Assembly: GCA_964429795.1 (NCBI GenBank)
Contig: CAYSCW010000004.1
Coordinates: forward strand, 35,939-99,938
Source of the DNA: an uncultured Eubacteriales bacterium
GTDB lineage: Bacteria; Acidobacteriota; Aminicenantia; Aminicenantales; Aminicenantaceae
Reading direction: 5' to 3'
DNA: 64,000 nucleotides
The translations under genes and the position numbers were made by a program. A model generated the notes under the pieces. It did no database searches, had not been told where the DNA came from, and worked only from the letters and a program-made list of their open reading frames with translations. Shown here in pieces: positions 20,491 to 40,752 of the stretch (within the stretch, counting starts at the first letter, position 1; each line of letters opens with the position of its first letter).

Positions 20491-20716
20491 TTTACCTCCT
20501 TCAAATAAAGACAATACTCTCTTTTGAGTTGCTGTGGTTTAACTTTTTAGGTGGGGAACAAGCAAAATCTCTTCCTTTTGAAAATATCAAAATATCAATA
20601 TTGCCATTTCAAGTCAACTGTTTCAAGCGAAATCATCTCTTTTTCCGTAATGAGGAAAGACATTTGATAGAATGAGGAATGGCGGCGCGGGTTTCCGTCC
20701 ATCCCCGACTGAATGG

Positions 20717-20745
20717 TTGACAGCGGGGAAATCAGGTGATATGTA
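20717..20745 (+). promoter_or_regulatory. Sigma70-like promoter candidate for the downstream hydratase/ADH operon
   Basis: TTGACA (20717-20722), 17 nt, TATGTA (20740-20745), about 60 nt upstream of the ATG at 20806. It lies in a 290-bp divergent intergenic region that also holds an AAAATATCAA direct repeat. Confidence 0.3.
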
Positions 20746-20805
20746 TTACATCTCAACTCCCATCAATCGACATTGATGAAAATCATCCTTTAAAAGAGGA
20801 ACATC

Positions 20806-21585: not shown

Positions 21586-21596
21586 AGGAGGAAGAA

Positions 21597-24381: not shown

Positions 24382-24419
24382 CCTTCATTTTTAATTATAC
24401 TCTTATAGGAAAAAAGATT

Positions 24420-26942
24420 TCAAGATACTCCTGATCTTTCTAGAGTCCTCATATTCTTTTTGCACTTCCTAACTTTATCCTCAAAGGGAATATCGTCGAT
24501 CAAGGGCAAGAGAAATTCCATCATTTCTTTCTTCAGCATGTTATCCAGAAGTTCGATGGAATAGTCGATGGATTTTTTTGTCCCTGCAGTGATGTTCTGG
24601 TACGCCTTGATGACATCTTCTTTAGCATAGACCAGACTCAGAAGTTCAAAAATATGCTTAAGGCAACGCGCTAAATTTTTTTCTAGCTCCTTAGCTAGAG
24701 ACACTTTTTTCTCATCCCCTTTCAAGCCGTCGATTTCTATCAAGATCAGATAGCTTTTCTTTATCATCCGCAGAGTTTCAGGAAGAACAATCTCATCTCG
24801 AAAATGGATATGGGGGTGTTTTGATTTCATCTTGAACATGGCCTCGATAATCTCCGACTCTACATCACCGTCTCTTCTTTTCAGCCCTAAGGAAAGGAGA
24901 TAGGCAGCTTTTTGAGTCCCTGTGTTGGCTAAGATATCAGGGATGGCCTTTCGGACTCGGATGTCTTCATCCTGGTCTCCCAGATAATCTTTTAGTGTCC
25001 CCACGATTTTGTTTCCATATTCAGCCAGAGCCTCACTGGCTATCCTTTGGGTAGAAGGCCTGCGAAGATGAGGAATGATGAGAGGAACAAAATCTCTTGT
25101 CTTCAGTTTTCCAGCGCTCTCCACAGCATATTTGATGACTTCTGGCGATTTATCTCGAAGAAGCTTGTTGAGATTATGAGTAAGAGAGGAGGTTGGTTTC
25201 ATCATACCCAGAACCTTGGCTGCTTCCATCTTGGACACTTCCGCATCCTTGCTTTCCTCATCGGCGATTTTATCGATGTGCTCTTTCATCAACTCCTGGT
25301 AGACATCGAGGGACATGATTTCCTTAACCTGGGCATCGAGATCTTCCTCCTCCAGAACATCATCCATTTCAGGAAGCAAGGCCTCGCCATCCAATTCCAG
25401 AAGGGAATCCATAGAGCCGGCTTTTATTTCATCAGATTTGCCGGAGATTATTCCTTTTAATGCAGGACTTAATTTATCTCTTTTGACTAGGTCAAAAAGA
25501 TTCATAGCATAAAGGACTGAACTCCTTTTTTTGCTTTCCAGAGTGTCAAAAACAAGTTTTGTCATATCGATATCAATCTTTTCTCCGATAAATTTATCCG
25601 CGTCTTCCCATTTTATTCTTAAGTTTCTCTTGACAATACCCACATACTCCTTGGTAATCATGAGATTAAGGCCAATCCATACAATGAGAAAAATTATGGT
25701 GACCAAACTGATTCGGACGACAGATAAATGAAAAACGAAAAGGAACAATAGGATAATGAGAGCTCCAAGACCTTTTGCAAATTTGTTGACAAACATATCG
25801 ATGAAGACCTTGGCTTTATATTTGATGTCAGGAGAAATGGGGATGTAAAGAAGCTCTCTCACTGACTGATTGAGGGAATAGGCCAGACTTTTATCCGCCC
25901 CTTTAATCAAGACTCCCCAGTAAATCAAATAGAGCATGGGGATGAAGAAGATGGCCACAGAACCCACCAATAAGAGAAAAGGGGCAACTAAAAGCGCCGC
26001 GCGGATTCCGAAGTTCTTCAGGATACGGCTGGTGAGAAGGACATGTAGCAAATAGGAAAATACAAGCATTCCAGTAAAAAAAATCCCCAGAAAAGAAGTC
26101 ATAGCATCTTTCTTGACCAAAACCTCCCCATCTACGGCCTCTGTGAAATGCTTTTCAACCACAGAATTGAACTGAAAATCGATCAAAGTGGTCACCACAA
26201 AAGTCGCAATCATGATCCCGCAGAGAAGCAGCAAATAACGATTTTTCCTGATCAACTGTAGGCTTTTGCCGTATCCTACCCTGGTTTTTTTCTTATCTCT
26301 AGTGGGCTGAGTCTCTTCCTCTTTTTCTCCTGGTATGCATTTTGAGATGAAAGTGATAATAACCAGACAAAAGATAAGCATCAGAGGACAAATCAAAAGG
26401 AGGTTTTCTGTTCCGAATTGCATGGCCAACAACGAGGCCAAAAGGGCTCCTGCTACTCCTCCCAAAAGTCCTCCGCTTACCAGAAAGCCAATCAGTCTTT
26501 TTGCCTGCCTTGGGTTATAGATATCGTTAACCAATATCCAGAATTGAGTGACAGATGTGGCTATGAAAATATCTGCCCAAAACCAATAAATTATGGAAAG
26601 CCAATCCCAGTTATATCTGAAAAACATCCAGAACAGCAAAAGACAGACTATAAAAAAAACCAGGCTCAAAGAGATGTAAACACGTCTCTTCATCACATGC
26701 AACAACCTGGAATTTAAAGAAACCACAAAACCGATCAAGACGGCTGTCAAAAGGTAGGCATAAGGGAGTCTGGTGAAAGACAGGCTTTCCAGGAAGAGCG
26801 AAATCTTGACGGGTTTGATGATGTAAACCGAGGAAGTGATGAGGAAAAAATAAATGAACAAGAGAATAGAGGAAGAAACTTCCCCTGCTCTTATGTCAGC
26901 AAAGTAGGATAAAAGCTTTTGGACTCGGTTCTTAGCCATCAA
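24420..26942 (-). CDS. TLC-family (ATP/ADP-translocase-like, TC 2.A.12) transporter fused to a C-terminal HEAT-repeat domain
   Basis: 840 aa. The N-terminal ~430 aa are polytopic and carry the TLC signature block FWILVNDIYNPRQAKRLIGF (compare Tlc FWQFANQITKIAEAKRFY). The C-terminal ~400 aa are soluble with repeated helical HEAT/PBS-lyase-like units. The gene overlaps its paralog by 11 nt. Confidence 0.6.
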   Translation of the reverse strand: MMAKNRVQKLLSYFADIRAGEVSSSILLFIYFFLITSSVYIIKPVKISLFLESLSFTRLPYAYLLTAVLIGFVVSLNSRLLHVMKRRVYISLSLVFFIVCLLLFWMFFRYNWDWLSIIYWFWADIFIATSVTQFWILVNDIYNPRQAKRLIGFLVSGGLLGGVAGALLASLLAMQFGTENLLLICPLMLIFCLVIITFISKCIPGEKEEETQPTRDKKKTRVGYGKSLQLIRKNRYLLLLCGIMIATFVVTTLIDFQFNSVVEKHFTEAVDGEVLVKKDAMTSFLGIFFTGMLVFSYLLHVLLTSRILKNFGIRAALLVAPFLLLVGSVAIFFIPMLYLIYWGVLIKGADKSLAYSLNQSVRELLYIPISPDIKYKAKVFIDMFVNKFAKGLGALIILLFLFVFHLSVVRISLVTIIFLIVWIGLNLMITKEYVGIVKRNLRIKWEDADKFIGEKIDIDMTKLVFDTLESKKRSSVLYAMNLFDLVKRDKLSPALKGIISGKSDEIKAGSMDSLLELDGEALLPEMDDVLEEEDLDAQVKEIMSLDVYQELMKEHIDKIADEESKDAEVSKMEAAKVLGMMKPTSSLTHNLNKLLRDKSPEVIKYAVESAGKLKTRDFVPLIIPHLRRPSTQRIASEALAEYGNKIVGTLKDYLGDQDEDIRVRKAIPDILANTGTQKAAYLLSLGLKRRDGDVESEIIEAMFKMKSKHPHIHFRDEIVLPETLRMIKKSYLILIEIDGLKGDEKKVSLAKELEKNLARCLKHIFELLSLVYAKEDVIKAYQNITAGTKKSIDYSIELLDNMLKKEMMEFLLPLIDDIPFEDKVRKCKKNMRTLERSGVS

Positions 26943-29439
26943 TTTTTTTTAAAAGCGAAGAGGTCTTGAGCAGGCCTCGGCACCTTTTCACTCTTTGTGC
27001 AAAAGGAATATTTTCGATGAGGGGAAGGAGGATGTCTCTAATTTCCTTTTCCAGAGTATTGTCAAGAAGTTCAACAGCATAAGCAGTCGAATCCTTGGTC
27101 CCTTCCTTGATGTTTTGATAGGCCCTGAAAATATCTTCATGCGTGTAGATGAGTCCCAGCAGCTTGAAAATATTGGCCAGAGACTGAGTAAGATCCTGAC
27201 GAGCGGGCTTTTCCGCTTGTTCTTTCTTTTCCTTAGTCAACGCTCGATAAAAATCAATGAGATTTGTACAGTAATTCTTGACTTCTTTGGCAATTTTTCG
27301 CTTGACGATCTCTTTCTGGAATAGAAAATCAGGATTATCCGAGCGGATTCTATCTAAGGCATCGATCAGTTCTGGATCCAGATCATCCTTTTCCTCTGCA
27401 AGTTCCCAGGTGAGGAAGTCGAGCGCTTCCTGGCCTCCAATGCGTGCTACGACTTTGACCAATTCTTTTCTCAACTCTATATCCACCTCAGAATCTCCTA
27501 TATAATCAGAAAGAGTGCCGACGATTTTTTGGCCGTATTTTTCAAGAGCTGTACTGGCATCTTCACGGGTAAGACGGCTGGATAACTTCTGGACTATAGA
27601 AGGAACATAATCTCTCTGCTTTAGCCTGGCTGCACTCTCCACAGCATACTTGCTCACCTCAGGTGATTCTTCATGGAGAAGGTCTTCAAGCGTATGGGTA
27701 AGAGGAGAATGAGAGTCCATCATTCCCAGAGCTTTGGCTACTTCCATTTTGGCGATTTCTGTCTCCTTGCCTTCTCTAGACATGACTTTCTCCACATAAT
27801 CCTTCATGACTTCCTGATAAACATCCAAAGACATGATCTCTTTTATCTCTTTCTTCAAGAATTCTTCACTGATATCATCCTCTGTTTCAGGTATCAGAGT
27901 GGTCTCTTCGGTCTCTAAAAGCACTCCCAATGAGGAGACTCTTATCTCATCAGATTTGTAAGAAATTACTTTTTTCAGCTCAGGAGTCAGTTTGTCCTGT
28001 TTGATCAAGTCGAACAAATGCATGGCATATAAGACAGAACTCCGATTCTTGCTCTCGATGGTGTCAAACACCAATTTCGTGTAATCCACATCCATTCTTT
28101 CTGTTATGAGCTTATCTGCTCGATCCCATCTCTTCTCCAACTTGTTTTTGACTGTACTCACATATTCCCGACTGACCTTAAGGTTGAGGAGAATCCAGAC
28201 AAGAATAAAAAGAACCGAAACAAGGCTAGTAAATCGGATGCCGATGGGCACCAGAACAAGGATCATGAGAATTAAAGCCCCAATGCCCTTGGCAAATCTG
28301 TTGATAAATATATCGATGAATATCTTTGCCTTAGTCTTGAGCTCTGGAGAGACAGGAATGTAGAGTAGCTCCCTAACGGATTGATTGATGGAATAAGAAA
28401 GGCTTTTATCACTCCCCTTAAGAAAGATGGCAAAAACGATACTGGCAAAGACAGCAATCCCTAAGGAGCCGAGAAGTAATAGAAGAGGAAAAAGCAGAAG
28501 AGTCAAACGAATACCATAGCGCTTGATGATGTTGCTAGTCATGAGTAGCTGAAGGAAGAACGCGAAAACCATCAACGCAGCATAAAAATGCCCAAAAAAG
28601 AATGTCAGATTATCCTTTCCAGAGATATTGATATCAATAACTCCTTTGAACTGAAAATCGATAAAAGTAGATACAATCCATGTGATGGTCACCATGGCTG
28701 CCAGCAATTTTAGATAAGAGTCTCGCCTCACTGTATTGAAACAATCCTTAAAACCCACTTTAAGTGGTTCTCCCCCTTTGCTTATATCTCTATTTTTGCC
28801 CGCTTTCACCTTATCAAATGTAGATTGTCGTTTCCTGTGCAACACAAAGATATAATGAACGATGAAAATACAGACAAAAAACATTCCGCAAGCTATGAGA
28901 AGAAGATGATTGGAAACTTTTGACTTAGCTAAAAGTCCAGCCGTTTCATATCCGACGATGCCTCCTAAAATTCCCCCACTCCCCATGAATCCGATCATCC
29001 GCTTAACCTCTCTTGGATTAAACACATCGTTAACAGTGATCCAAAATTGAGTCATCAGAACCACCAACATATTGACCCAGATCCAAAAAGCAAGAGGTAT
29101 CCATTCCCATTCCTTAGGGAAAATCCACCAAAAGAGCAGGGAGGTCAGGATGAAAAAGACAAGGCTGAGGGTAAGTAAAAGATGTCTTTGGATTTTGGCC
29201 TGGAGTTTAGAATGAAAAGCAACCACAAAACCTATGATTATAGCTGTAAGCAAGTAGGCAACAGGTAATTTTTTATAGGACAAAACATCCAAATAGAAGG
29301 CATCTCTCAAGGGTTTGACAATGGAGAAAGGAGCTGCGATAAGAAAAAAATAAAGAAAAAGAAGAAGAGCTATAAGCTCTTCACCAGGATTCAAATCGAC
29401 GATACGCGATAAAACTTTATACAGGCGATTTTTGGCCAT
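26932..29439 (-). CDS. TLC-family transporter fused to a C-terminal HEAT-repeat domain (paralog of 24420-26942)
   Basis: 835 aa with the same architecture; TLC block FWITVNDVFNPREVKRMIGF. The two genes are tandem and translationally coupled. Confidence 0.6.
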   Translation of the reverse strand: MAKNRLYKVLSRIVDLNPGEELIALLLFLYFFLIAAPFSIVKPLRDAFYLDVLSYKKLPVAYLLTAIIIGFVVAFHSKLQAKIQRHLLLTLSLVFFILTSLLFWWIFPKEWEWIPLAFWIWVNMLVVLMTQFWITVNDVFNPREVKRMIGFMGSGGILGGIVGYETAGLLAKSKVSNHLLLIACGMFFVCIFIVHYIFVLHRKRQSTFDKVKAGKNRDISKGGEPLKVGFKDCFNTVRRDSYLKLLAAMVTITWIVSTFIDFQFKGVIDINISGKDNLTFFFGHFYAALMVFAFFLQLLMTSNIIKRYGIRLTLLLFPLLLLLGSLGIAVFASIVFAIFLKGSDKSLSYSINQSVRELLYIPVSPELKTKAKIFIDIFINRFAKGIGALILMILVLVPIGIRFTSLVSVLFILVWILLNLKVSREYVSTVKNKLEKRWDRADKLITERMDVDYTKLVFDTIESKNRSSVLYAMHLFDLIKQDKLTPELKKVISYKSDEIRVSSLGVLLETEETTLIPETEDDISEEFLKKEIKEIMSLDVYQEVMKDYVEKVMSREGKETEIAKMEVAKALGMMDSHSPLTHTLEDLLHEESPEVSKYAVESAARLKQRDYVPSIVQKLSSRLTREDASTALEKYGQKIVGTLSDYIGDSEVDIELRKELVKVVARIGGQEALDFLTWELAEEKDDLDPELIDALDRIRSDNPDFLFQKEIVKRKIAKEVKNYCTNLIDFYRALTKEKKEQAEKPARQDLTQSLANIFKLLGLIYTHEDIFRAYQNIKEGTKDSTAYAVELLDNTLEKEIRDILLPLIENIPFAQRVKRCRGLLKTSSLLKKIDG

Positions 29440-29469
29440 GGAAGGCTCTAAAGGAGAAAAGCCTGATCT

Positions 29470-29817
29470 TTACTCTTTAAAAAAGCTCTCCAAAGCCATC
29501 TTTTCATCATCGAATATTTCTAAGACTTTGGTGAGCATGGTGACTTGGAAAACAAGATAGAGTTTCTTGGATATCTTGGCGATTTTCAGTTTCCCTCCCA
29601 AGTTATGCGTGGATATATAACTGGCTAAGATCTCTCCTACGCCAAAACTATCGATGAAATCAACATTCTGAAAATTGAGAAGGATGTTGCGCTTTCCAGA
29701 ATCCAATTGATCTTTGACTAGCTGATGGAGTGTGATATCAGTGATATCAGACCTTCGGATTTCTCCTTCGATGTCAAAAATGACGATATCATTCTTTTCT
29801 CTTGTGTTTATGACCAT
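29470..29817 (-). CDS. STAS-domain anti-sigma-factor antagonist (SpoIIAA/RsbV-like)
   Basis: 115 aa; the STAS fold has a conserved phosphorylatable Ser region (FIDSFGVGEI). It lies 30 nt upstream of the TLC-HEAT genes on the same strand. Confidence 0.7.
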   Translation of the reverse strand: MVINTREKNDIVIFDIEGEIRRSDITDITLHQLVKDQLDSGKRNILLNFQNVDFIDSFGVGEILASYISTHNLGGKLKIAKISKKLYLVFQVTMLTKVLEIFDDEKMALESFFKE

Positions 29818-30069: not shown

Positions 30070-31215
30070 ATGAGGGCTCAGGAATCGTTAAAAAAAGGAA
30101 ACAAGGTTTCCATGAAAAACATCACAGGAAAGAATCCGACGAGAAAAATTAAATCCTCTCTTATCTTTACCCTGCTCATCTTCCTCCTTTTTTCCTGCCT
30201 GTACGCAGGCAAAATCCAATGTGTTTGGACGGGAGTCGAAAAAATCATTGCTGTGGGAGATATCCATGGCGATTACAGCAATTTCCTGAAAATCTTAAAG
30301 GGAGTGGGACTCATCGATGAAGCTCTTCATTGGTCAGGCGGCAAAACCCATTTTGTCCAAACTGGAGATATTATGGACAGAGGCCCTGACGCTCGAAAAG
30401 TCTTTGACTTGCTGATAAAACTGGAGAAGGACGCTGAAAAAGCGGGAGGCAAGGTCCACGTTCTTCTTGGCAACCATGAGGAGATGAATATCACTGGCAT
30501 ATCCTTCGATTATCCCGGATATGTCACGGTGGAGCAATTTGTCTCTTTCTTGCCTGGCAGTTATAAAAAAAAGGAAGAAAAAGAATTCCAAGAACAGTCA
30601 GGCAAAGAGAATCTTAGTGGCTCGCATTCGGATCTTTCCTCGAATAATTCCTTAAGAGCGAAATGGGAAAATCTCCTCAAGACCGACTTGAGTGCTCGGA
30701 AGGAATATATCATTTTTTTCAACAAAAATTATGGTAAGTGGTTGCTTAAACACAATGCGGTCATCAAAATCAACGATGTCATATTCGTCCATGGAGGGAT
30801 CAGCAAAAAATTCTCAAAATGGAAACTGGAGGATATAAACGAGCAGTTGCGGATAGAGCTCTCCTTTCTGCGCAGGGCAGCCATCAATTCATCGCCTTCA
30901 AAAATTACCTTCACTCCCCAAATTGTTTACAAAAGCGAAGGGCCTCTCTGGTATCGAGGTTTAGCCACCATGAATGAGGCAATTTTCGAGGCAGAGGTTG
31001 ATAAAACCTTGACTAATCTGGGAGCAAAATACATGGTTATTGCTCATACACCGCGAATGGGCAGCCCAGTTATGGCAGAGGAGTATTTAAGACGTTTTCA
31101 CGGAAAAGTCTGGATTATCGACACGGGAATTTCAGAATTTTATGGAGGATTTTTGAGTGCTTTAATAATCAAGAATGGAGAATTTTCTCTTTGGGCGGTG
31201 GGTCATGAACGATAA
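30070..31215 (+). CDS. PPP-family metallophosphatase (PP1/PP2A/ApaH-like) with an N-terminal signal anchor
   Basis: All PPP signature motifs are present: GDIHGD, GDIMDRGPD, GNHE, HGG and a GH motif. The N-terminus has a basic stretch followed by one hydrophobic helix (KIKSSLIFTLLIFLLFSCLYA), implying extracytoplasmic or membrane-anchored topology. Confidence 0.75.
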   Translation: MRAQESLKKGNKVSMKNITGKNPTRKIKSSLIFTLLIFLLFSCLYAGKIQCVWTGVEKIIAVGDIHGDYSNFLKILKGVGLIDEALHWSGGKTHFVQTGDIMDRGPDARKVFDLLIKLEKDAEKAGGKVHVLLGNHEEMNITGISFDYPGYVTVEQFVSFLPGSYKKKEEKEFQEQSGKENLSGSHSDLSSNNSLRAKWENLLKTDLSARKEYIIFFNKNYGKWLLKHNAVIKINDVIFVHGGISKKFSKWKLEDINEQLRIELSFLRRAAINSSPSKITFTPQIVYKSEGPLWYRGLATMNEAIFEAEVDKTLTNLGAKYMVIAHTPRMGSPVMAEEYLRRFHGKVWIIDTGISEFYGGFLSALIIKNGEFSLWAVGHER

Positions 31216-32005
31216 AAATTATGTCCTTCTCATTTTCATCTGCCTCACTCTAGCCAATTGGTGCCTGAGCTTATCTCAATCGCCAGATCGAGGGAATTGG
31301 GACCAAGATAAACTGGAGAATTATCTGAGAACAGCTGAGATCATTTCTGTGGAAAAAGACACAGAAGCGGGAAGGACCGCACCGTGGAGAATCACACTCA
31401 ACGACGGAATAACTCAACGCCAAGGCCTCTTCAAGTACATCAATCGCTCCCGACCTTCCCTTCTTCCTGATAGTTATAAATACGAGATTGCCGCTTATGA
31501 ACTGGACAAACTCCTCGAGCTCAAAATCGTACCTCCCGTTGTGGAAAGAGAAATTGAAGGGACAACAGGTTCTCTTCAACTTTATCTAGAAGGCTGCATA
31601 AGAGAAGCCGAGAGAAAAAGGAAAAAAATAGATCCACCAGATCCTGTATCCTTTCAGAACATGCTGGAAGTGATCAATGTTTTTGAGAATTTGGTCCTTG
31701 AAGAGGATTGTTTTGATGCCAATGACATCCTGGTTGATCTTGATGAGTGGAAAGCGTATCGAGTCGACTTTTCCATGGCCTTCTCCCCTCTGCCTGAGAT
31801 CATTTCTGGATGCAAAATCAACAAGTGTTCTCGTAAATTCTACAACAACCTCCTCCAATTGGATGACCTTCAAGTCAAGAATAAACTCAAGCCATTTCTC
31901 AATGACCCAGAGATTGAAGCTCTGCTTCAACGCAAAAAAATCATCATCGAAAAGATCGGGCAATTGATTAAAGAAAAGGGACAAGATGCTGTCCTCTTCA
32001 ACTGA
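31205..32005 (+). CDS. Secreted minimal kinase-like protein, paralog 1 (RIO/Kdo/WaaP-like fold; catalytic motifs degenerate)
   Basis: Signal peptide MNDKNYVLLIFICLTLANWCLSLSQS. It keeps the paralog-family blocks K...YEIAAYELDKLLELKIVPPVVE, but has EEDCFDAND in place of the DRHxxN loop and VDFS in place of IDHS. Its ATG overlaps the phosphatase stop by 11 nt. Confidence 0.4.
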   Translation: MNDKNYVLLIFICLTLANWCLSLSQSPDRGNWDQDKLENYLRTAEIISVEKDTEAGRTAPWRITLNDGITQRQGLFKYINRSRPSLLPDSYKYEIAAYELDKLLELKIVPPVVEREIEGTTGSLQLYLEGCIREAERKRKKIDPPDPVSFQNMLEVINVFENLVLEEDCFDANDILVDLDEWKAYRVDFSMAFSPLPEIISGCKINKCSRKFYNNLLQLDDLQVKNKLKPFLNDPEIEALLQRKKIIIEKIGQLIKEKGQDAVLFN

Positions 32006-32173: not shown

Positions 32174-33547
32174 ATGAGAGGAAACGAAAAAGAATCTTCT
32201 GGCCTAGTCTATCGCTTTTTCCGGCTCTTTACAGTAGTCCATCCTGGTGAAGGGCTGACAGTTTTTCTCTTGACTCTTAATATTTTTTTGATCCTGACGG
32301 CTTATTCGATATTAAAACCAGTCAGAAAAGCTTTAATCTTAACAGGACAAACCGCCGAAATCGAAGCCTATCTTTTTGGAGTTATGGCTATAGTACTTAT
32401 CTTCGTCATAAAAATATTCAGCTACCTTTCTGCTAAAGTCCCCCGTCAATTATTGATCACCTGGGTTACCCTCTTTTTTATCTTGAATCTAGCCATTTTT
32501 TATGTCTTACATCTTGCGGGAACCCCTCTAGGTACGTTGAGTGTCATCTTTTACATATGGGTTGGGATATACAACGTTTTTCTCATTGCTCAATTCTGGG
32601 GCTTTTCCAACGATATCTACACAGAGGAAGAAGGAAAAAGACTATTCGTATTGATCATGCTTGGACAAAACCTGGGAGCTGTCATCGGCAGCAAGATCCC
32701 TTCCTTACTGGTAAAACCAAAAGGACCATTAAGCCCCTTTCATTTTCTACTCCTCACTGGAGCCATCCTGGTCGCCTGCATTGTATTAACCCTTATTATC
32801 CACAAAAGAGAGATGGAAAGTGTAAAAAATAAACAGGCCCATCAAAAGGCAAAAGAAAAACATAAGAAAAAATTGAAGGAGAAGCCTTTGCCAAGGGGAG
32901 GCGGTTTTCGTTTGGTGTTTAAAAGTAGATATCTTCTCTTCATCGCCTTGGTTATCTTGGTGCTGAATTACGTCAATACAAATGGTGAATACATCAAATC
33001 CAAAGTATGGGATCGCACCGCTGAGCAGGCTAAGGAAACCGAAAAGATTAAAGGTTCAGAGGCGGCAGAGGCTGAATTTCTGACCAAATTAGATTCTGAC
33101 TTCAATTTTTTGGTTAATCTCTTTGCCCTGTTCATTCAACTCTTTCTGGTCTCGCGTATATTCAAGTGGTTCGGAGTTAAAGGAGCACTCCTCTTCCTCC
33201 CATTCATTTCCATTGGAGGTTATTTTTTCATTGCTTTAGGAGCCTCATTTATCCGGGTTAAATGGGCTAAGATCTTTGAAAACAGCACAGATTACTCCCT
33301 AATGAACACAACTCGAGGCGCCCTCTTCCTCATAACATCAAGAGAAGCAAAATACAAAGCCAAGGCAGCCATCGATACTTTTTTCGTGAGAACAGGGGAT
33401 TTATTACATAGCCTGACCGTTCTCCTTGGCACCACCTACCTCGCTTTTAGCCTGGAAAGTTTCGCCAAACTCAATGTGGGCATAGCTGTAGTCTGGATAA
33501 TCCTCTGTTTATTGGTTATAAGAGAACACAAGAGGTTATCAGCTTAA
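32174..33547 (+). CDS. TLC-family (ATP/ADP-translocase-like) transporter without a HEAT extension
   Basis: 457 aa, about 12 TM; the signature block IAQFWGFSNDIYTEEEGKRLFVLIMLGQNLG matches Rickettsia/Chlamydia Tlc ([28 protein letters not shown]). Confidence 0.7.
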   Translation: MRGNEKESSGLVYRFFRLFTVVHPGEGLTVFLLTLNIFLILTAYSILKPVRKALILTGQTAEIEAYLFGVMAIVLIFVIKIFSYLSAKVPRQLLITWVTLFFILNLAIFYVLHLAGTPLGTLSVIFYIWVGIYNVFLIAQFWGFSNDIYTEEEGKRLFVLIMLGQNLGAVIGSKIPSLLVKPKGPLSPFHFLLLTGAILVACIVLTLIIHKREMESVKNKQAHQKAKEKHKKKLKEKPLPRGGGFRLVFKSRYLLFIALVILVLNYVNTNGEYIKSKVWDRTAEQAKETEKIKGSEAAEAEFLTKLDSDFNFLVNLFALFIQLFLVSRIFKWFGVKGALLFLPFISIGGYFFIALGASFIRVKWAKIFENSTDYSLMNTTRGALFLITSREAKYKAKAAIDTFFVRTGDLLHSLTVLLGTTYLAFSLESFAKLNVGIAVVWIILCLLVIREHKRLSA

Positions 33548-33708: not shown

Positions 33709-34542
33709 TCATCGCAAGTCTTTCACTTTGATTATTCCTCCTGAATCCTGGGCAATATACAGATAGCCTTCTTCATCCTTGGTGATCCCCTCCTGATTAT
33801 CTCCGAGAAATGCATACTCCTTAACTAACTTTCCCTCAAGGGTGATTTCCACCAGGATATTATCCGCATCACTGACAATATTCAACAGGCCTGTCTTCTG
33901 ATCATAGTACATGGCTGAAGGATCATCCATAGCAAATGGTAAAACCCGGATAATTCTTGCTTCTGCGATCTCAGATTCGCTTGTCCTGAGAGGAACCAGA
34001 ACCTCAATTATGCACGGAGGATCCCACTGATTGCCCATGTAGAATGTTCCACCTTCAGGATGGTTCTCATCGGGAACAAAAGCAACGGACTCAATCCCGT
34101 TATCATGACCTTCTTTCTGTTTTTGAAGAAAATTGGGATCGTTCCCAAATGTTCTATTAATAGGGAATCGCCGGGTAACTTTTTTTTCCTCTGGATCAAA
34201 CTCAAGGAGAACATCTTCTCCTTCAATGATTATGTAAAGAAGACCAGATTGAGGAGCGACTGTAATGCCTTCCAAATCACCGGGAATTTTTACTCGCGAC
34301 ACAGGACTTCCATCTGTCTCTATTTCGAAGATCTCCCCTTCATCACTGACCACAAAGAGAGTTTTCCTGAGAGGGTGGAAACAAATATCAGAAGGTTCAA
34401 CAATACTTTGTTGATCTATATTTCCTCCAAATCCAACGGGTCCCAACCATTCGTAGGGGAACCGGATAGTTGGTGAATGTTTTTCCGAGGAACAGAAAAG
34501 TGTGAATATCATGATGCTCAATACAAAGACTTTTATTCTCAT
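33709..34542 (-). CDS. Secreted beta-propeller protein (SdiA-regulated/YjiK-like or phytase-like)
   Basis: Signal peptide, then repeated D/EGI(T/A) blade motifs (DLEGITVAP, NGIESVAFVPDE, QEGITKDEEGYLYIAQDSGG). Confidence 0.35.
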   Translation of the reverse strand: MRIKVFVLSIMIFTLFCSSEKHSPTIRFPYEWLGPVGFGGNIDQQSIVEPSDICFHPLRKTLFVVSDEGEIFEIETDGSPVSRVKIPGDLEGITVAPQSGLLYIIIEGEDVLLEFDPEEKKVTRRFPINRTFGNDPNFLQKQKEGHDNGIESVAFVPDENHPEGGTFYMGNQWDPPCIIEVLVPLRTSESEIAEARIIRVLPFAMDDPSAMYYDQKTGLLNIVSDADNILVEITLEGKLVKEYAFLGDNQEGITKDEEGYLYIAQDSGGIIKVKDLR

Positions 34543-34940: not shown

Positions 34941-35768
34941 ATGAGAAGAAAAATCATCTTCATCGCTGTTCTCATCCTTTTCCTTGCCCAAAACTATAAC
35001 ATAATCGCCCAATTTACCCCAGAAGAACTGGGAGAAAGAGCCAACTGGGAAGAATTTCTCAAGACGGCAGAAATCATCAAGTACCAAGAGATAGGCGAAG
35101 GAGTAACTAAGCCCATAAGACTCTACTTGAAAAAAGGAGATACAGAAGCCAGCGGGGTCTGGAAAAACCCAAAGGGCATCCAGGAAGGCTTCCTTGAGGG
35201 CTGGGAGTATGAGATCGCCGCTTATCAAATGGATAAGATTCTGGAGCTGAATATGGTTCCCCCCACAGTGGAGAGAGAATTCGAGGGAAAAAAGGGTTCT
35301 CTTCAGCTTTGGGTTGAGGCTGAATTCAGTCTCCTCGATATCATGGAAGAAAAAATTGCAATGCCCGCTTCTGGATCAGAATCCGACAATATCCAGAAGA
35401 CCAAATATCTAACCAGAGCTTTCGACAGTCTGATCGCCAACGAAGACAGAACCCAGCAGAATATTTTTTACACAAAGGACTGGCGGGTGATTCTCATCGA
35501 TCATTCCCGTTCCTTTCGTTCTTCCAAGAAATTCACCAAACAGCTTATGTTCGGGAGAACTGGCATCGAAGGGAACAAACCTTTCAGACAGCTGCCGTGC
35601 GCATTCGTAGAAAAAATAAAGGCACTGGATTTTGAAATCATCAGAGAAGCTGTTGGCCCTTATCTCCAAGATAAAGAGATAAAAGCCATCCTTGCTCGCA
35701 AAAAGCTTATATTGGCAGAAATTGATGAAATGATAAGAGAAAAAGGCGAAGAAAATGTTTTGTATTGA
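34941..35768 (+). CDS. Secreted minimal kinase-like protein, paralog 2 (RIO/Kdo/WaaP-like motifs intact)
   Basis: Signal peptide MRRKIIFIAVLILFLAQNYNIIAQ; a putative beta3 Lys (VWK) and alphaC Glu in EYEIAAYQMDKILELNMVPPTVE (RIO-like E..F..L..L...GI.VP.P block); catalytic-loop-like LIANEDRTQQN; DFG-like ILIDHSRSF 18 residues later. Confidence 0.45.
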   Translation: MRRKIIFIAVLILFLAQNYNIIAQFTPEELGERANWEEFLKTAEIIKYQEIGEGVTKPIRLYLKKGDTEASGVWKNPKGIQEGFLEGWEYEIAAYQMDKILELNMVPPTVEREFEGKKGSLQLWVEAEFSLLDIMEEKIAMPASGSESDNIQKTKYLTRAFDSLIANEDRTQQNIFYTKDWRVILIDHSRSFRSSKKFTKQLMFGRTGIEGNKPFRQLPCAFVEKIKALDFEIIREAVGPYLQDKEIKAILARKKLILAEIDEMIREKGEENVLY

Positions 35769-35828: not shown

Positions 35829-36641
35829 GTGAAAAGAAAAATTACTTCTCTTTTCTTTCTTGTTATCTTTTTGGGTTTCCTTTTTCAGTTGTTAGCCCAA
35901 TTCACTGCAGAAGAAATAGAAGAGAGAGCAAAATGGGAAGAGTTCCTGGAGACGGCAGAAATCACAGGCTCCGATCAGCCATGGGTAGAACGGGAGGCCG
36001 TGACCAATCCCTGGAGGTTGACCATTGAAAAAGATGGGATTGTGAAACAGGCAATATGGAAGAACGTGGAAGGCAGGGTGAAGGGGTATCTCGATAACTG
36101 GAGATGGGAGATCGCAGCTTACCGCTTGGACAAATATTTGGGCTTACACATGGTTCCTCCCACTGTAGAAAAAAGATTTCGAGGGGATCGTGGATCCTGT
36201 CAATTACTGGTCGATTACTGGATCAGCCTTAAGGATAAATATGAACAAAACATAAAAACTCCCTCTTATAAAATTTTCAACTGGAATAGAGCTCTCTACC
36301 TGCAGCGGGCTTTCGACAATCTGATCGCCAATGAAGACCGTCATCAGAATCAGTACCTCATAACCGAAGATTGGCGGATGATTCTTATTGATCATTCTCG
36401 GTCTTTCCGCACATCCAAAAAATTCACCAAAGATCTCATCTATGATGCAAACTACAAAGAAGGTCCGAGGTTGATGAAGGAGCTCCCCAGTTCTCTTGTA
36501 GAGAAGCTGAAAAGCCTCAATCATGAGGTGATAAGAGAAGTTGCAGGAGAATATTTGACAGAAAAGGAAATCGAGGCTATCCTTATCAGAAGAGATTTGA
36601 TACTCAAGGAAATCGACAAGATCAAAACGGTTCTCTACTGA
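35829..36641 (+). CDS. Secreted minimal kinase-like protein, paralog 3 (tandem to paralog 2)
   Basis: GTG start with an AGGAAGG RBS; signal peptide MKRKITSLFFLVIFLGFLFQLLAQ; blocks WEIAAYRLDKYLGLHMVPPTVE, LIANEDRHQNQYLI and ILIDHSRSFRTSKKFTK shared with paralog 2. Confidence 0.45.
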   Translation: MKRKITSLFFLVIFLGFLFQLLAQFTAEEIEERAKWEEFLETAEITGSDQPWVEREAVTNPWRLTIEKDGIVKQAIWKNVEGRVKGYLDNWRWEIAAYRLDKYLGLHMVPPTVEKRFRGDRGSCQLLVDYWISLKDKYEQNIKTPSYKIFNWNRALYLQRAFDNLIANEDRHQNQYLITEDWRMILIDHSRSFRTSKKFTKDLIYDANYKEGPRLMKELPSSLVEKLKSLNHEVIREVAGEYLTEKEIEAILIRRDLILKEIDKIKTVLY

Positions 36642-36644
36642 TTC

Positions 36645-37130
36645 CTAAATTTCAGTCTTCTTGATGGTCTTATACATGATCAGCACGTTCTGATTGTCTT
36701 CGCGTCTGTAATCAAATCCGTCCATAAGTTTTCGAACAAGAAAGATACCCAAGCCGCCTGTTTTTGCATCCTTGATCATTTCTTCTATGTCGGGGGCCTT
36801 CGACTGGGTTGGATCAAAGGGAACTCCATTATCCCTGATTTCAAAGAAGATCCTTCCCTCTTCCTGCCATATCTTGAGGAAGATAGTGCCCCTCTTCCTG
36901 CGATAGGCATATCTTACGATATTGGAACATATCTCTAAGAGGGAAAGCTCAATGATGTAATAGGCCTTTTCAGAAAGATTTAAATCCTGGAGGGCATCTC
37001 GAAGAAAGGTTCTAGCTTTATCCAGTTCTGCAAAGTCGCTCAGAATCTTAAACTTTTTCATTTCCGTTCTGTATGGTTTCTTTTTTCCCTTTCTGCTTTC
37101 CTTGATTGAAGAGCCTCCCAATTTTCTCAT
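36645..37130 (-). CDS. Anti-sigma-factor serine kinase (RsbW/SpoIIAB-like, GHKL ATPase)
   Basis: GHKL motifs EIRDNGVPFDP and GGLGIFLVRKLMD; 161 aa as listed. A second in-frame start MKKFKILSDF at 37061 would give the canonical ~138-aa size. Confidence 0.65.
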   Translation of the reverse strand: MRKLGGSSIKESRKGKKKPYRTEMKKFKILSDFAELDKARTFLRDALQDLNLSEKAYYIIELSLLEICSNIVRYAYRRKRGTIFLKIWQEEGRIFFEIRDNGVPFDPTQSKAPDIEEMIKDAKTGGLGIFLVRKLMDGFDYRREDNQNVLIMYKTIKKTEI

Positions 37131-37425: not shown

Positions 37426-38118
37426 ATGCACCACATACATGAAGAGACAATCATCCAAGAGTGCGTAGCAAAGTTAAAAAGCGGAAAACTCGCACCCTGG
37501 AAAGTGGAAGAGGAAATCCAGAAAGAGTATGAAATCCCTTCTCCAAATAATTTCAAGATCGCCGCAGCATGCAGGCAGAAATTTATCGAAGAAGAGACAG
37601 GCGAAAAATTCGTCTTTATCTCCATCTCCTCCCAGCCTTACAAAGAACGGTACATCTGTGAGAATGACCATCTTGCCTGGGAACTCGACATTTCAGACAC
37701 GGATCTTACCTGTTCGCTATGCGGAACCGAACTGAAGCCTTTAGGACAATATGCTCCGCTGCTTGCCAACTATGTGGGAGGAGTAGAAGATTACTATTCT
37801 TATGGAGGGCGATTAAAGGTCAACGGCGACTTGGAGACAGAGTTGACAAGCCTTCTTGTCTATGGAACAGGAATGGGCCCGATGGGTGTGACCAGAGGAT
37901 GTTATATCATCAATAAATTTGGCGGGGCTGAGGTCAAGGTTTCACAGTTCGGCAGAGCAGCTCGTTCGCTTGGCTTGATCTTCAAGAACGAAGAGATGCG
38001 AAGGAAAGCCATATCGACAATCCAACTCTTCTTTCCCGAAGCCAAAGCCCGAATGCAGGAGAGAACAAGGAAGATATTATCTATAGGGTGGAGCTGCCTA
38101 ATATTGAAGCGGGAGTGA
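37426..38118 (+). CDS. Hypothetical protein; possible frameshift with a 63-codon ORF continuing in another frame at 38088-38279
   Basis: 230-aa ORF with a CxxC pair. It overlaps by 31 nt a short ORF whose translation (GREALRIMGIKTAKEFAASVASQVLAGEFNLALEI) looks like a conserved C-terminal helix rather than an independent gene. Confidence 0.3.
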   Translation: MHHIHEETIIQECVAKLKSGKLAPWKVEEEIQKEYEIPSPNNFKIAAACRQKFIEEETGEKFVFISISSQPYKERYICENDHLAWELDISDTDLTCSLCGTELKPLGQYAPLLANYVGGVEDYYSYGGRLKVNGDLETELTSLLVYGTGMGPMGVTRGCYIINKFGGAEVKVSQFGRAARSLGLIFKNEEMRRKAISTIQLFFPEAKARMQERTRKILSIGWSCLILKRE

Positions 38119-39137: not shown

Positions 39138-39920
39138 TCAACCCTCTAATCTCCGGAATTGCTCGATGACGAACCCAGAAATCAAATCCAGCATCTTTTC
39201 AAAGCCATCTAAATTTGTATACCTGTGATCAGCCCCCTGGATAATTTCTAACCGGCAATTCTTTATGAGAGCAGATGCTCTCTGGCTTTGGCGAAGGGGA
39301 ACCGTTTCATCTTCACTCCCGTGAACGATCAAGGTAGGGACCTTGATTTTCTTACAACAGGCGTAGCCGTTGACTCTCTCTGCATCCTCGAAAAAGGAAT
39401 AACTCAATCCGAGTTCTTCTCCATCTGGAGTGAATACAGATAGAACCCCCTTATCCTTCCAGCTTTTTATGATTTTTTCATCGTGGCCAGCCACCAGTTT
39501 TCCCATGTAATCGGAAACAGGAGATTTCAAGGCTAAGAAAAGAATATCTCTCGTCTTGGAAACAGCTATCAGGCTGGCCATTCCCCCAAAGCTCGAACCA
39601 ACCAGGCCTATTTCGACATACCTTAACCCCTTCAAGAATTTGAGGGCACTGAGAACATCGTCGGCCGCTTCAGAGATGGTTATCTCCTCAAACTTGCCCT
39701 CACTTTCCCCGTGGCCAAAGAAATCAAACCGGAAGGTGGAGATTTGACTATTGTTTAAAATTTCCTCTAGCCGGACGTTTGTCCTGCTCTCTTTGCTTGA
39801 GGAAAATCCATGACACAAAATAGTCACGCGTCCTTTATTGCGAGCACTGGGCTCTGAGAGAATTCCGCTAAGCCTGTGACCTCTGCTGCTTTTAAAGAAG
39901 ACCTTATTTTCCATGTCCAA
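39138..39920 (-). CDS. Alpha/beta hydrolase (dienelactone-hydrolase / S9 peptidase-like)
   Basis: GxSxG nucleophile elbow (GSSFGG) and HGxxD regions; 260 aa. Confidence 0.65.
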   Translation of the reverse strand: MDMENKVFFKSSRGHRLSGILSEPSARNKGRVTILCHGFSSSKESRTNVRLEEILNNSQISTFRFDFFGHGESEGKFEEITISEAADDVLSALKFLKGLRYVEIGLVGSSFGGMASLIAVSKTRDILFLALKSPVSDYMGKLVAGHDEKIIKSWKDKGVLSVFTPDGEELGLSYSFFEDAERVNGYACCKKIKVPTLIVHGSEDETVPLRQSQRASALIKNCRLEIIQGADHRYTNLDGFEKMLDLISGFVIEQFRRLEG

Positions 39921-39955
39921 GGATAAGAAAGAAAATATTAGGGTTATTCTTTTGA

Positions 39956-40750: not shown

Positions 40751-40752
40751 TG

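Follow-up and report, generated by a model that had tools for sequence, protein, structure and literature searches.

The periplasm is generally held to be free of ATP, and energy use in the envelope is explained by transducers of the proton-motive force or by cytoplasmic ABC ATPases. Opposing kinase and phosphatase activities on one polypeptide are known from the bifunctional enzymes AceK, HPr kinase/phosphorylase and PFK-2/FBPase-2, all of which are cytoplasmic and have folds unrelated to those described below. Kinases that act outside the cytosol are exemplified by the FAM20 family, which has been treated as specific to eukaryotes or to Metazoa (PMC9758233). Among PPP-family phosphatases, the Shelphs are defined by an (I/L/V)D(S/T)G motif, the absence of SAPNY and an insertion that separates GNHE from HGG (PMC535813). 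Transporters of the NTT-HEAT type occur in free-living bacteria and also in cyanobacteria and chlamydiae (PMC5381601).

The window analysed here is a stretch of 64,000 nt (contig CAYSCW010000004.1, positions 35,939-99,938 of the forward strand; assembly GCA_964429795.1, Aminicenantaceae, Acidobacteriota). A sequence-only reading had singled out an exported phosphatase and a pseudokinase-like partner, psK, as an unusual duo. The two genes are indeed coupled and conserved as a pair, but they do not stand alone: the cluster also holds two intact paralogues of psK, termed K1 and K2 and located 3 kb downstream of the pair, together with three NTT/TLC transporters and a partner-switching module. We give an even chance to the view that the pair is the phosphatase arm of a larger, conserved multi-gene system for extracytoplasmic phosphorylation.

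The phosphatase gene (30070-31215, plus strand) encodes a predicted exported protein of 381 residues. All four PPP signature motifs attributed to it can be read directly in the sequence: GDIHGD (residues 63-68, nt 30256-30273), GDIMDRGPD (residues 99-107, nt 30364-30390), GNHE (residues 134-137, nt 30469-30480) and HGG (residues 241-243, nt 30790-30798). The protein matches Pfam Metallophos (3.6e-14, 54 bits), carries the bacterial-PPP motif IIDTG, lacks SAPNY and has an insert of ~100 residues between GNHE and HGG. The nearest solved structure is that of the cold-active phosphatase of Shewanella (PPI/CAPTPase; PDB codes 1V73 and 2Z72), with an E-value of 6e-35 against 2.4e-5 for Rhilph and 5e-3 for BSU1, a ranking taken from a PDB sequence search. 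All PPP metal-binding motifs, the (I/L/V)D(S/T)G motif and the long GNHE-HGG insert are thus common to this protein and the Shelphs. It is set apart from them by an obligatory Fam20-like partner, separate or fused, and we know of no other Shelph so accompanied. By score it is nearer to the phosphatase domains of the fusion proteins discussed below (median 157 bits) than to PPI (124 bits).

The N-terminus of the phosphatase displays a basic RKIK segment, a 16-residue hydrophobic core and an AxA-like site. The signal peptide is predicted to span approximately residues 1-46 (nt 30070-30207), with cleavage between LYA and GKIQC; an alternative start at 30112 agrees with most orthologues. Since every one of the 50 orthologues read shares this layout, the segment is likelier to be a cleavable Sec signal peptide than a permanent anchor. 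The sequence-only reading had described a single hydrophobic helix that would place the catalytic domain outside the cytoplasmic membrane. The predicted extracytoplasmic location holds either way, whether the segment is cleaved or kept as an anchor, but the helix itself is most likely a cleaved signal peptide. Lipoprotein anchoring was also considered on account of a lipobox-like LLFSC and was rejected: such a sequence is present in 3 of 50 orthologues and the AxA-type site is general, so that a cleaved signal peptide is preferred.

The psK gene (31205-32005, plus strand; 266 residues, exported by prediction) begins with an ATG at 31205, and the phosphatase ends with a TAA at 31213-31215, which confirms the reported overlap of 11 nt. 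Overlapping starts and stops (-11, -4, -14 or -89) are found in at least 37 of 47 orthologous loci, and the order phosphatase to psK is kept in 47 of the 50 loci that bear the phosphatase. A search returned 603 psK homologues, and synteny of the cluster is kept in ~50 species-level genomes, which places the pairing far beyond chance. The signal peptide ascribed to psK is seen in the window protein and in those orthologues whose N-terminus could be read (45 of 47 loci); here, as for K1, K2 and the fusions, signal peptides were called by heuristic reading of N-termini.

Structure prediction assigns psK a kinase fold with confidence, as had been anticipated, and both psK and K1 adopt the Fam20-type atypical kinase fold in these terms. 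Fold and sequence relate psK to Fam20, not to the RIO/Kdo/WaaP group to which its fold had been likened, although psK itself has no match to Pfam Fam20C (PF06702). Its catalytic loop, EEDCFDAND (nt 31700-31726), is degenerate in all 50 orthologues examined, with loss of the Asp-Arg pair; the loop varies in length, and the position eight residues after the conserved Phe is a Cys or a gap in most of them. In the same 50 sequences Lys K77, the DFG-equivalent metal-binding D188 and a new invariant residue, D174, are kept, and the αC Glu is present in 62%. The earlier description of degenerate catalytic residues is therefore apt for the catalytic loop, but not for the entire site, as K77, D174 and D188 persist. 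An alignment of three sequences, in which D168, N173 and D188 seemed kept, had led us to consider psK as an active kinase; this was abandoned, as D168 and N173 are not conserved in the alignment of 50 orthologues. By predicted fold and by loss of catalytic residues across orthologues, psK qualifies as a pseudokinase. In a neighbour-joining (NJ) tree it lies on a long branch of its own, and it could derive either from a fused domain or from K1/K2.

K1 (34941-35768, plus strand; 275 residues) and K2 (35829-36641, plus strand; 270 residues, GTG start) both have N-terminal signal peptides and an intact catalytic set. Throughout the K1 family K75, E91, N167, D169, R170 and D187-H188-S189 do not vary and N174 hardly does; nt 35436-35462 encode the catalytic loop. 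K2, recognized by alignment with K1 and by synteny, retains the motifs NEDRHQNQ...IDHSRSF. The order K1 to K2 is kept in most loci, and the two form sister clades in the NJ tree. The Lys, the αC Glu, the catalytic Asp and the metal-binding Asp are thus present in K1, K2 and the fusions, but not all of them in psK.

Against Pfam PF06702 (cut-off 26.8 bits), K1 and K2 score 17.6 and 16.9 bits, below the gathering threshold, and a tandem-kinase relative, P0250, scores 29.4 bits. Matches to PI3_PI4_kinase (PF00454; 16.9 against 27.1), HipA_2 (PF20613; 19.1 against 27) and the SCO1664 family (TIGR03843; 46.2 against 172.4) likewise fall below the curated cut-offs. When the PDB was searched with the kinase family profile, six of seven matches were Fam20 proteins and the seventh was noise, and the motifs EIAA[YF]xLD..PPTV.R and FDxLIxNxDR are common to both groups. 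Taken together, the profile, the motifs and the predicted folds show that psK, K1 and K2 belong to a large, Pfam-unassigned bacterial family that is remotely homologous to the metazoan Fam20 secretory kinases. Several thousand such relatives lack Pfam coverage, and databases label them 'hypothetical' or 'metallophosphoesterase'. A genome scan with the K1 profile gave only Aminicenantes among its best 80 loci, and the distant lineages were reached via a representative library.

Like metazoan Fam20C, Fam20B and Fam20A, the bacterial proteins are signal-peptide-bearing atypical kinases with a predicted location outside the cytosol, and like Fam20C and Fam20A they combine an intact kinase and a catalytically dead paralogue in one system. 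They differ in being smaller (~250 residues, compared to 350-420 for the crystallised cores), in falling below the Pfam Fam20C threshold (17 versus 26.8 bits), and in their links to a PPP phosphatase, by fusion or translational coupling, and to NTT transporters. To our knowledge, neither the phosphatase coupling nor the NTT linkage has a counterpart in Fam20. Another secreted Ser/Thr kinase, CtkA of Helicobacter pylori (PDB code 3AKJ), works in host cells that contain ATP and has neither a phosphatase partner nor an NTT linkage; sequence searches from the kinase family did not detect it. Our literature search gave no report of bacterial Fam20-like kinases or of kinases in the periplasm.

In other phyla the two halves of the pair are joined. 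Gammaproteobacteria, Myxococcota and other Acidobacteriota encode a phosphatase domain and an intact kinase domain in one polypeptide that is predicted to be exported, and at least 876 fusion relatives were found. These Rosetta-stone fusions are spread over at least three kinase clades; their kinase domains retain the Lys, Glu, catalytic Asp-Arg, Asn and metal-binding Asp, and the full-length fusions that were read have signal peptides. By analogy with AceK, the presence of both domains on one chain may be taken as implying a common substrate and reciprocal control. A natural fusion, together with a split pseudokinase derivative, also offers material for studying how pseudoenzymes arise. It could be argued that no ATP-dependent phosphorylation takes place outside the cell, and that the kinase-like domain is a ligand-binding or targeting module of the exported phosphatase. 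We consider this unlikely. The catalytic degeneracy of the phosphatase partner in the window speaks in its favour, but K1, K2 and the fused kinase domains strongly keep the catalytic set across phyla, and a reading of these proteins that dispenses with catalysis is for this reason hard to sustain.

Three transporters accompany the kinases. TLCs, a short NTT/TLC-family MFS transporter of 457 residues (32174-33547, plus strand), is encoded downstream of psK; phosphatase, psK and TLCs form an operon in Aminicenantes, and a terminator scan found no terminator-like site in the interval between psK and TLCs. NTT-HEAT transporters 1 (26932-29439, minus strand; 835 residues) and 2 (24420-26942, minus strand; 840 residues), whose genes overlap at the stop of the former, consist of a TLC/MFS membrane domain followed by C-terminal HEAT repeats (Pfam TLC, MFS_1 and HEAT_2). 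Scores for Pfam TLC (PF03219, TC 2.A.12; cut-off 21 bits) are 69.6 bits for TLCs and 54.9 and 57.8 bits for the NTT-HEAT proteins. Among solved structures, TLCs has significant sequence similarity only to the NTT ADP/ATP carriers 9j3n and 9j3j, for which our literature search found no paper; signature motifs are in common. Pfam TLC membership and the NTT signature motifs are thus shared with the ATP/ADP translocases. The window transporters score only 53-68 bits for TIGR00769 against a cut-off of 387, and because of this distance from characterised NTTs their substrate could differ.

The linkage of transporter and kinase genes extends beyond the window. An NTT/TLC gene lies beside the pair or fusion in nearly all Aminicenantes loci and in four of five further lineages. 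Of the 35 metagenomic fusion loci flanked by 1.6 kb or more on both sides, 16 have a TLCs-type gene immediately adjoining the fusion, in convergent or co-directional orientation; at 200-330 bits to window TLCs, these relatives from other phyla are of orthologue grade. Homologues of NTT-HEAT 1 (250-313 bits) adjoin phosphatase-kinase fusions in four loci, L168, L170, L171 and L172. The order is NTT-HEAT, cNBD and fusion in L168, with 4-nt overlaps, and fusion followed by NTT-HEAT in L170; L171 presents RsbW, STAS, kinase, two NTT-HEAT genes, cNBD and fusion as one operon with SpoIIE alongside, and in L172 NTT-HEAT and cNBD lie near a phosphatase and a tandem kinase. The succession of NTT-HEAT and a cNMP-binding gene is exactly that described for free-living bacteria by Major, Embley and Williams in 2017 (PMC5381601), but the exported kinase/phosphatase context found here was not reported there. 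In the Myxococcota locus, and in roughly half of the gammaproteobacterial fusion loci that are well flanked, the reachable sequence contains no NTT gene. When ORFs neighbouring the fusions were clustered, TLCs was the only conserved family, the rest being local synteny or high-GC frame noise, and the clustering yielded no candidate substrate conserved in the neighbourhood. Synteny in Aminicenantes could stem partly from shared ancestry, and the cross-phylum cases are fewer.

Nucleotide or organophosphate scavenging, in which the NTTs import external nucleotides in the manner of energy parasites, and the exported phosphatase and nucleotide-binding kinase-like domains prepare them for uptake, would be another use for such a gene set. 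Import is the canonical NTT function (PMC5381601). The best NCBIfam matches of the phosphatase are ApaH and PrpE, all far under threshold, and the organisms inhabit necromass-rich sediments. However, the Fam20/PI4KII fold phosphorylates hydroxyl groups with ATP, and we know of no member that interconverts nucleotides. The phosphatase is closest to a protein phosphatase, Shewanella PPI, and neither synteny nor neighbour clustering revealed a conserved nuclease, nucleotidase or binding protein nearby. Gating by a cytoplasmic partner switch or by cNMP, moreover, fits control of export better than nutrient uptake, and on these grounds scavenging appears very improbable.

Cytoplasmic regulators are encoded in the cluster as well. 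The gene for a STAS anti-sigma-antagonist-like protein (29470-29817, minus strand; 115 residues) opens the minus-strand operon and diverges from that of the phosphatase; its product matches Pfam STAS (3.1e-11) and TIGR00377 (52 bits), and the synteny of the gene is kept. An RsbW/SpoIIAB-like anti-sigma-type kinase (36645-37130, minus strand; 161 residues; HATPase_c_2, 3.3e-28) is conserved at its position tail-to-tail with K2, and in Thermoanaerobaculia an RsbW-like gene shares one operon with kinase and NTT-HEAT genes. The last gene of the minus-strand operon encodes an FHA-GAF-SpoIIE (PP2C) phosphatase (22696-24381; 561 residues; Pfam SpoIIE 2.6e-51, FHA and GAF), a type that also adjoins the system in L001 and L171. 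Judged by domain content, the partner-switching set of STAS, HATPase_c_2 and SpoIIE PP2C is complete in the window cluster and in L171, and STAS/RsbW/SpoIIE or cNMP-binding proteins often accompany the pair or fusion and the NTT/TLC transporters. The catalysis-free reading introduced above would have the NTT-like proteins carry another solute, or serve as receptor or target of the phosphatase module and signal inward via HEAT, STAS and RsbW. Their remoteness from characterised nucleotide transporters and the nature of the HEAT, STAS and cNBD partners, which are typical of signalling and not of transport, agree with such a role, whereas the NTT signature motifs retained by TLCs argue against it.

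The model that we prefer, with exported kinases and phosphatase, an NTT-driven ATP supply and regulation from the cytoplasm, is predicted from sequence and could as readily prove right as wrong. The NTT-type transporters would swap cytoplasmic ATP for periplasmic ADP, possibly with Pi, and so provide the phosphodonor for the exported kinases. Trentmann et al. reportedly identified, in 2008, ADP plus Pi as counter-substrates of non-mitochondrial NTTs. The direction proposed here, export of ATP from a free-living cell, differs from that of characterised NTT/TLC proteins; with external ADP present, NTT-type translocases expressed in free-living bacteria give ATP efflux (PMC11632070). K1 and K2, or the fused kinase domain, would phosphorylate an envelope or periplasmic target, be it protein, glycan or lipid, and the Shelph phosphatase would take the phosphate off again, kinase and phosphatase together converting ATP to ADP and Pi. 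In Aminicenantes psK, a former kinase domain, may serve as docking or substrate-recognition subunit of the phosphatase and possibly, by analogy with Fam20A and Fam20C, as an allosteric partner of K1 and K2. The cytoplasmic regulators might act on the HEAT domains of the transporters, such that the phosphorylation state outside reports a cytoplasmic signal. It counts against the model that ATP would be expected to escape from a porin-bounded periplasm, a cost that only physical coupling of kinase and transporter would spare the cell.

The same enzymes might instead act on an envelope glycan or lipid, such as capsule, LPS, exopolysaccharide or a phospholipid head group, and not on a protein. This would be an ATP-fed periplasmic pathway of modification and de-modification that departs from the preferred model in substrate and not in mechanism. 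However, neither the Aminicenantes cluster nor most of the other loci contain polysaccharide genes, and the Shelphs characterised to date act on phosphoproteins (PMC535813); we regard a glycan or lipid target as somewhat unlikely.

More broadly, and only tentatively, as we hold it to be possible but short of an even chance, several phyla may possess a dedicated and regulated ATP supply line to the periplasm, with NTT or NTT-HEAT transporters gated by a partner switch or cNMP and powering Fam20-like kinases, and with Shelphs closing the cycle. Our literature search found no description of such a system and nothing on periplasmic ATP supply. If correct, the proposal would mean that a compartment which textbooks call ATP-free hosts reversible phosphorylation at the expense of ATP, or a work cycle driven by it. 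The enigmatic NTT-HEAT family would gain a function in free-living bacteria, and the widespread NTT-HEAT(-cNBD) proteins, whose role there has been asked about since 2017, their first functional context. The proposal would also imply a prokaryotic ancestry for the metazoan Fam20 secretory kinases, with an analogue of the ATP importer. Whether ATP-dependent chemistry occurs beyond the bacterial inner membrane can be tested directly with a few recombinant proteins.

Two other readings of the cluster were rejected: PADLOC gave no meaningful matches that would indicate an anti-phage defence system, and a mobile or plasmid origin was dismissed, with no plasmid match and no compositional anomaly at the cluster. 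An Rfam scan of the window found no riboswitch or other RNA element, and promoter-like sites are as frequent as chance predicts. For terminator-like sites the count is about double that expected from shuffled sequence (32 versus 16.7), but most of them lie inside genes, and the promoter and terminator scan yielded nothing of use for the cluster. Between TLCs and K1 lies a gene for an exported β-propeller of the YjiK/SdiA-regulated type (33709-34542, minus strand; 277 residues), recognized through Pfam (SdiA-regulated, 2.7e-16; Phytase-like, 2.6e-8) and the YjiK structure (PDB code 3qqz); synteny comparison shows it to be conserved in the Aminicenantes cluster only.

The exported phosphatase and its kinase-like partner, which the sequence-only reading had flagged as a pair, belong to a larger system; the observation stands, the interpretation only in part. 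We have high confidence in the identities of the parts and in the conserved association of a phosphatase, a kinase domain and a transporter of the ADP/ATP-translocase family (NTT). The phosphatase gene (PPP; 30070-31215, + strand, 381 aa) carries the four PPP motifs claimed for it, at residues 63-68, 99-107, 134-137 and 241-243, together with the bacterial-PPP motif IIDTG, and matches Pfam Metallophos (3.6e-14). Among PDB sequences the closest solved structure is the Shewanella cold-active PPI/CAPTPase (1V73, 2Z72; E = 6e-35), the next relatives, a Rhilph (2e-5) and plant BSU1 (5e-3), being far weaker. By the group-defining features of Andreeva and Kutuzov (PMC535813), its sequence identifies the enzyme as a Shewanella-like phosphatase (Shelph).

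The topology of the phosphatase was judged from the N-termini of 50 orthologues by a heuristic reading of signal peptides. All 50 share one layout, in which a basic n-region is followed by a hydrophobic core of 12-18 residues and a small-residue site (e.g. LYA/ASIQC, LSA/QEIPC, LPA/EQIPC). This is, heuristically but with high consistency, what a cleaved Sec signal peptide looks like, and it bears out the earlier placement of the catalytic domain outside the cytoplasmic membrane. A lipobox in the window protein (LLFSC) was set aside, as it is present in only 3 of the 50. Orthologues of the pseudokinase partner (psK) begin with MKxK and a hydrophobic core at every locus where the N-terminus is readable (45 of 47), and signal peptides are also found on two further kinases, K1 and K2, and on full-length phosphatase-kinase fusions. 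By the same consistent, if heuristic, reading, the catalytic domains of PPP, psK, K1, K2 and the fusions are all predicted to be extracytoplasmic, which in the diderm Aminicenantes means periplasmic or beyond. Just after the small-residue site, mature phosphatase orthologues have a single, nearly invariant Cys (IQC/IPC; Cys51, 30220-30222). Of the psK orthologues, 41 of 50 have a Cys where the catalytic Asp used to be, and a GCxxxxC motif contributes an invariant one. Disulfides between these residues, within or across subunits, are possible and would suit an oxidising compartment.

The psK reading frame (+ strand) spans 31175-32005 or 31205-32005, depending on the start (276 or 266 aa), and overlaps that of the phosphatase; with the ATG at 31205 and the phosphatase stop TAA at 31213-31215, the overlap has the 11 nt first proposed. 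The pairing is conserved, psK directly following PPP in 47 of 50 PPP-bearing loci; at no fewer than 37 of these 47, the end of PPP and the start of psK overlap. psK has 603 detectable homologues, of which the closest 120, all from Aminicenantes-type MAGs, share 49% identity or more with it. The partner is kinase-like as supposed, and its fold is of the Fam20/PI4KII rather than the RIO/Kdo/WaaP type, since in a table of known kinase folds the highest figures were those of Fam20 (Hydra Fam20 5xom, 18.7; zebrafish Fam20C 5yh0, 18.0; C. elegans Fam20C 4kqa, 17.3) and PI4KII-alpha (16.5), ahead of H. pylori CtkA (14.3), HipA and CotH (about 10-11), WaaP (8.7) and RIO1 (8.4). In an alignment of 50 orthologues, the segment replacing the catalytic loop varies in length, most sequences show a Cys or a gap in place of the catalytic Asp, and the next Arg is gone. 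This loss supports the reading of psK as a pseudokinase with degenerate catalytic residues; that the window protein has an Asp in 'EEDC' is due to a chance insertion of one residue. In contrast, D174 and D188 (the Asp that binds metal in 'DFS', the DFG-equivalent) never vary, and 90% of the sequences retain K77. The site continues to resemble a conserved pocket for a ligand.

Two psK paralogues absent from the sequence-only reading, K1 (34941-35768, + strand) and K2 (35829-36641, + strand), are encoded 3 kb downstream; they have 35% and 27% identity to psK, respectively, and intact 'LIANEDR(T/H)QxN ... LIDHSRSF' motifs. Residues K75, E91, N167, D169, R170, D187, H188 and S189 are invariant in 38 family members. 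The family profile returned seven matches among all PDB sequences, six of them Fam20A, Fam20B and Fam20C (best E = 9e-5) and the seventh an unrelated coiled-coil protein (E = 0.74); the alpha-C motif EIAA[YF]xLD...PPTV.R, the catalytic loop and the C-terminal helix are common to profile and Fam20 structures. Neither K1 nor K2 scored above the cut-off of any curated model (Fam20C, HipA_2, PI3_PI4_kinase and TIGR03843 all fell below), and the precomputed Pfam field of the homologues is empty. This is a large family: a K1 query returned 5697 sequences at 90% clustering, and the K1 profile, at 50% clustering, returned 4054 representatives, of which 437 have E-values below 1e-30.

Many of the profile matches are proteins of 580-900 aa in which, by Pfam and inspection, a signal peptide, a Shelph-type Metallophos domain, a linker and a Fam20-like domain follow one another, with both active sites intact. 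Their phosphatase domains score a median of 157 bits against the window phosphatase, compared with 124 bits for Shewanella PPI. A search with one fusion as query gave 876 or more relatives in Gammaproteobacteria, including Steroidobacteraceae and Pseudomonadales, whose annotation goes no further than 'metallophosphoesterase'; additional fusions come from Acidobacteriota and Myxococcota. In a neighbour-joining tree, fusions fall in at least three kinase clades and psK stands alone on a long branch. Such Rosetta-stone fusion in several clades is strong sequence evidence that the phosphatase and the kinase(-like) domain work jointly. The latter might be purely a targeting module, with no external ATP chemistry, or the system might serve nucleotide scavenging; the main argument against both is that K1, K2 and the fusions strictly conserve the full catalytic set from phylum to phylum.

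The gene next after psK encodes TLCs (32174-33547, + strand), a short TLC/NTT-family protein with 12 TM segments (69.6 bits; cut-off 21), whose sole significant solved sequence relatives are the NTT ADP/ATP carriers 9j3n and 9j3j; the signature stretches FWGFxN(E/D)I and K.K.KAAID are common to all three. Upstream on the opposite strand, a tightly packed operon (22696-29817, - strand) co-transcribes genes for STAS, two NTT-HEAT proteins (TLC/MFS membrane domain with C-terminal HEAT repeats; genes overlapping) and an FHA-GAF-SpoIIE phosphatase, in that order. The association is also seen beyond Aminicenantes. In Steroidobacteraceae, a fusion gene converges with one for a protein of 461 aa that matches the window TLCs at 244 bits. 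In a metagenome scan seeded with fusions (35-48% identity to the query), the fusion is directly adjoined by a TLCs-type gene (200-330 bits) in 16 of the 35 loci flanked by 1.6 kb or more on each side and in 21 of the 53 with downstream flank, in convergent, upstream co-directional or downstream co-directional orientation. An Acidobacteriota MAG has NTT-HEAT, a cNMP-binding protein (cNBD) and a fusion in succession with 4-nt overlaps; another lineage has a fusion followed by NTT-HEAT; and on a further contig NTT-HEAT, followed by cNBD, lies close to both a phosphatase and a tandem kinase. A Thermoanaerobaculia MAG unites RsbW, STAS, an active kinase, two NTT-HEAT, cNBD and a fusion in a single operon beside FHA-GAF-SpoIIE (protein identities verified). 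No NTT gene lies within 8 kb at two gammaproteobacterial loci and a Myxococcota locus. Since copies per genome are few, arrangements varied and several phyla involved, the recurrent link is hard to ascribe to chance or inherited synteny.

From comparative genomics and structure prediction we propose the following mechanism. Exported kinases would require a phosphodonor. NTTs are nucleotide exchangers with direction set by gradients, and those expressed in free-living cyanobacteria or E. coli export ATP upon addition of external ADP (PMC11632070). On these two grounds, TLCs and NTT-HEAT may swap cytoplasmic ATP for periplasmic ADP(+Pi), supplying K1/K2 or the fused kinase domain. Kinase and phosphatase together would turn ATP into ADP and Pi, which Trentmann et al. 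in 2008 reportedly described as the counter-substrates of non-mitochondrial NTTs. MFS proteins have both termini in the cytoplasm; the HEAT domain is accordingly expected on that side of the membrane, where a STAS/RsbW/SpoIIE switch or cNMP-binding protein might gate it. In Aminicenantes, the phosphatase's kinase-like partner would have lost catalysis and dedicated kinases taken over; most plausibly, psK docks the phosphatase on the substrate that it shares with the kinases, modulates K1/K2 in the way Fam20A modulates Fam20C, or does both. Protein is the default substrate because Shelphs are protein phosphatases, and a glycan or lipid is kept in play by the Fam20B/PI4KII similarity and by capsule genes in some loci; any one particular substrate could be named only with low confidence. 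We hold this model of ATP supply and reversible phosphorylation to be evenly poised between right and wrong.

Every part belongs to, or is remotely related to, a known superfamily (Shelph PPP, Fam20-like kinases, NTT). The nearest functional analogy of the whole is the eukaryotic secretory pathway, with its Fam20C/Fam20A and lumenal ATP importer. A literature search found no description of bacterial Fam20-type exported kinases, of a Shelph-kinase fusion or of exported kinases linked in any way to NTT or NTT-HEAT transporters. FAM20 counts as specific to eukaryotes or Metazoa in a recent kinome survey (PMC9758233), and the paper that defined NTT-HEAT(-cNBD) proteins did not settle on a function for them (PMC5381601). 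The assembly is new as a bacterial system.

In 84 Aminicenantes-type loci the canonical order is NTT-HEAT2(-) NTT-HEAT1(-) STAS(-) PPP(+) psK(+) TLCs(+) YjiK-like(-) K1(+) K2(+) RsbW-like(-), the RsbW-like kinase gene (36645-37130, - strand) ending the window cluster. The partner-switching proteins of the window appear to be associated with transporters and not with a sigma factor; L003 and L004, however, have an RpoD-like sigma-70 gene between the STAS and phosphatase genes. The exported YjiK/'SdiA-regulated' beta-propeller (33709-34542, - strand), with a weak phytase-like signature, lies between TLCs and K1 in most Aminicenantes loci and is absent from the systems of other phyla; it might be a substrate, a scaffold or a hydrolase. 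Just past the cluster, an ORF of 230 aa (37426-38118, + strand) lacks a Pfam match and was refound only in the closest relative, L005. The flanks (19246-22625 and 39138-41907) hold genes for the fermentation of amino acids and fatty acids (2-hydroxyglutaryl-CoA dehydratase D-component, enoyl-CoA hydratases, acyl-CoA dehydrogenase, Zn-dependent alcohol dehydrogenase), which fits an anaerobic fermenter, and sequence composition does not change abruptly where the cluster begins or ends.

'Lone' K1-type genes occur additionally, away from the main cluster, in several Aminicenantes genomes (L019, L024, L028, L030, L039, L043, L044, L052, L053, L058, L066), with no other system gene within 10 kb. 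The K1 orthologue of Ca. Saccharicenans subterraneus (277 aa) is annotated 'metallophosphoesterase' though it has no such domain. Among the records L005-L084, P0119, P0166 and P0204, loci syntenic with Aminicenantes bear the names 'uncultured Eubacteriales', 'Clostridiales bacterium', 'Candidatus Desulfaltia' or 'Candidatus Hydrothermarchaeota archaeon'; these are probably placeholders or the outcome of mis-binning. Among variant architectures, P0268 (898 aa) has a phosphatase and then two kinase-like domains, both with altered catalytic loops (NASR, NTDE), and P0250 and L172 8001-10016 (671 aa) have two intact kinase domains in tandem beside a fragmented phosphatase gene. At two gammaproteobacterial loci without an adjacent NTT, a 122-aa lipoprotein without Pfam match (lipobox LSGC/LASC; L085 7444-7812, L087 7508-7876, - strand) is encoded divergently upstream of the fusion and is a possible partner or substrate.
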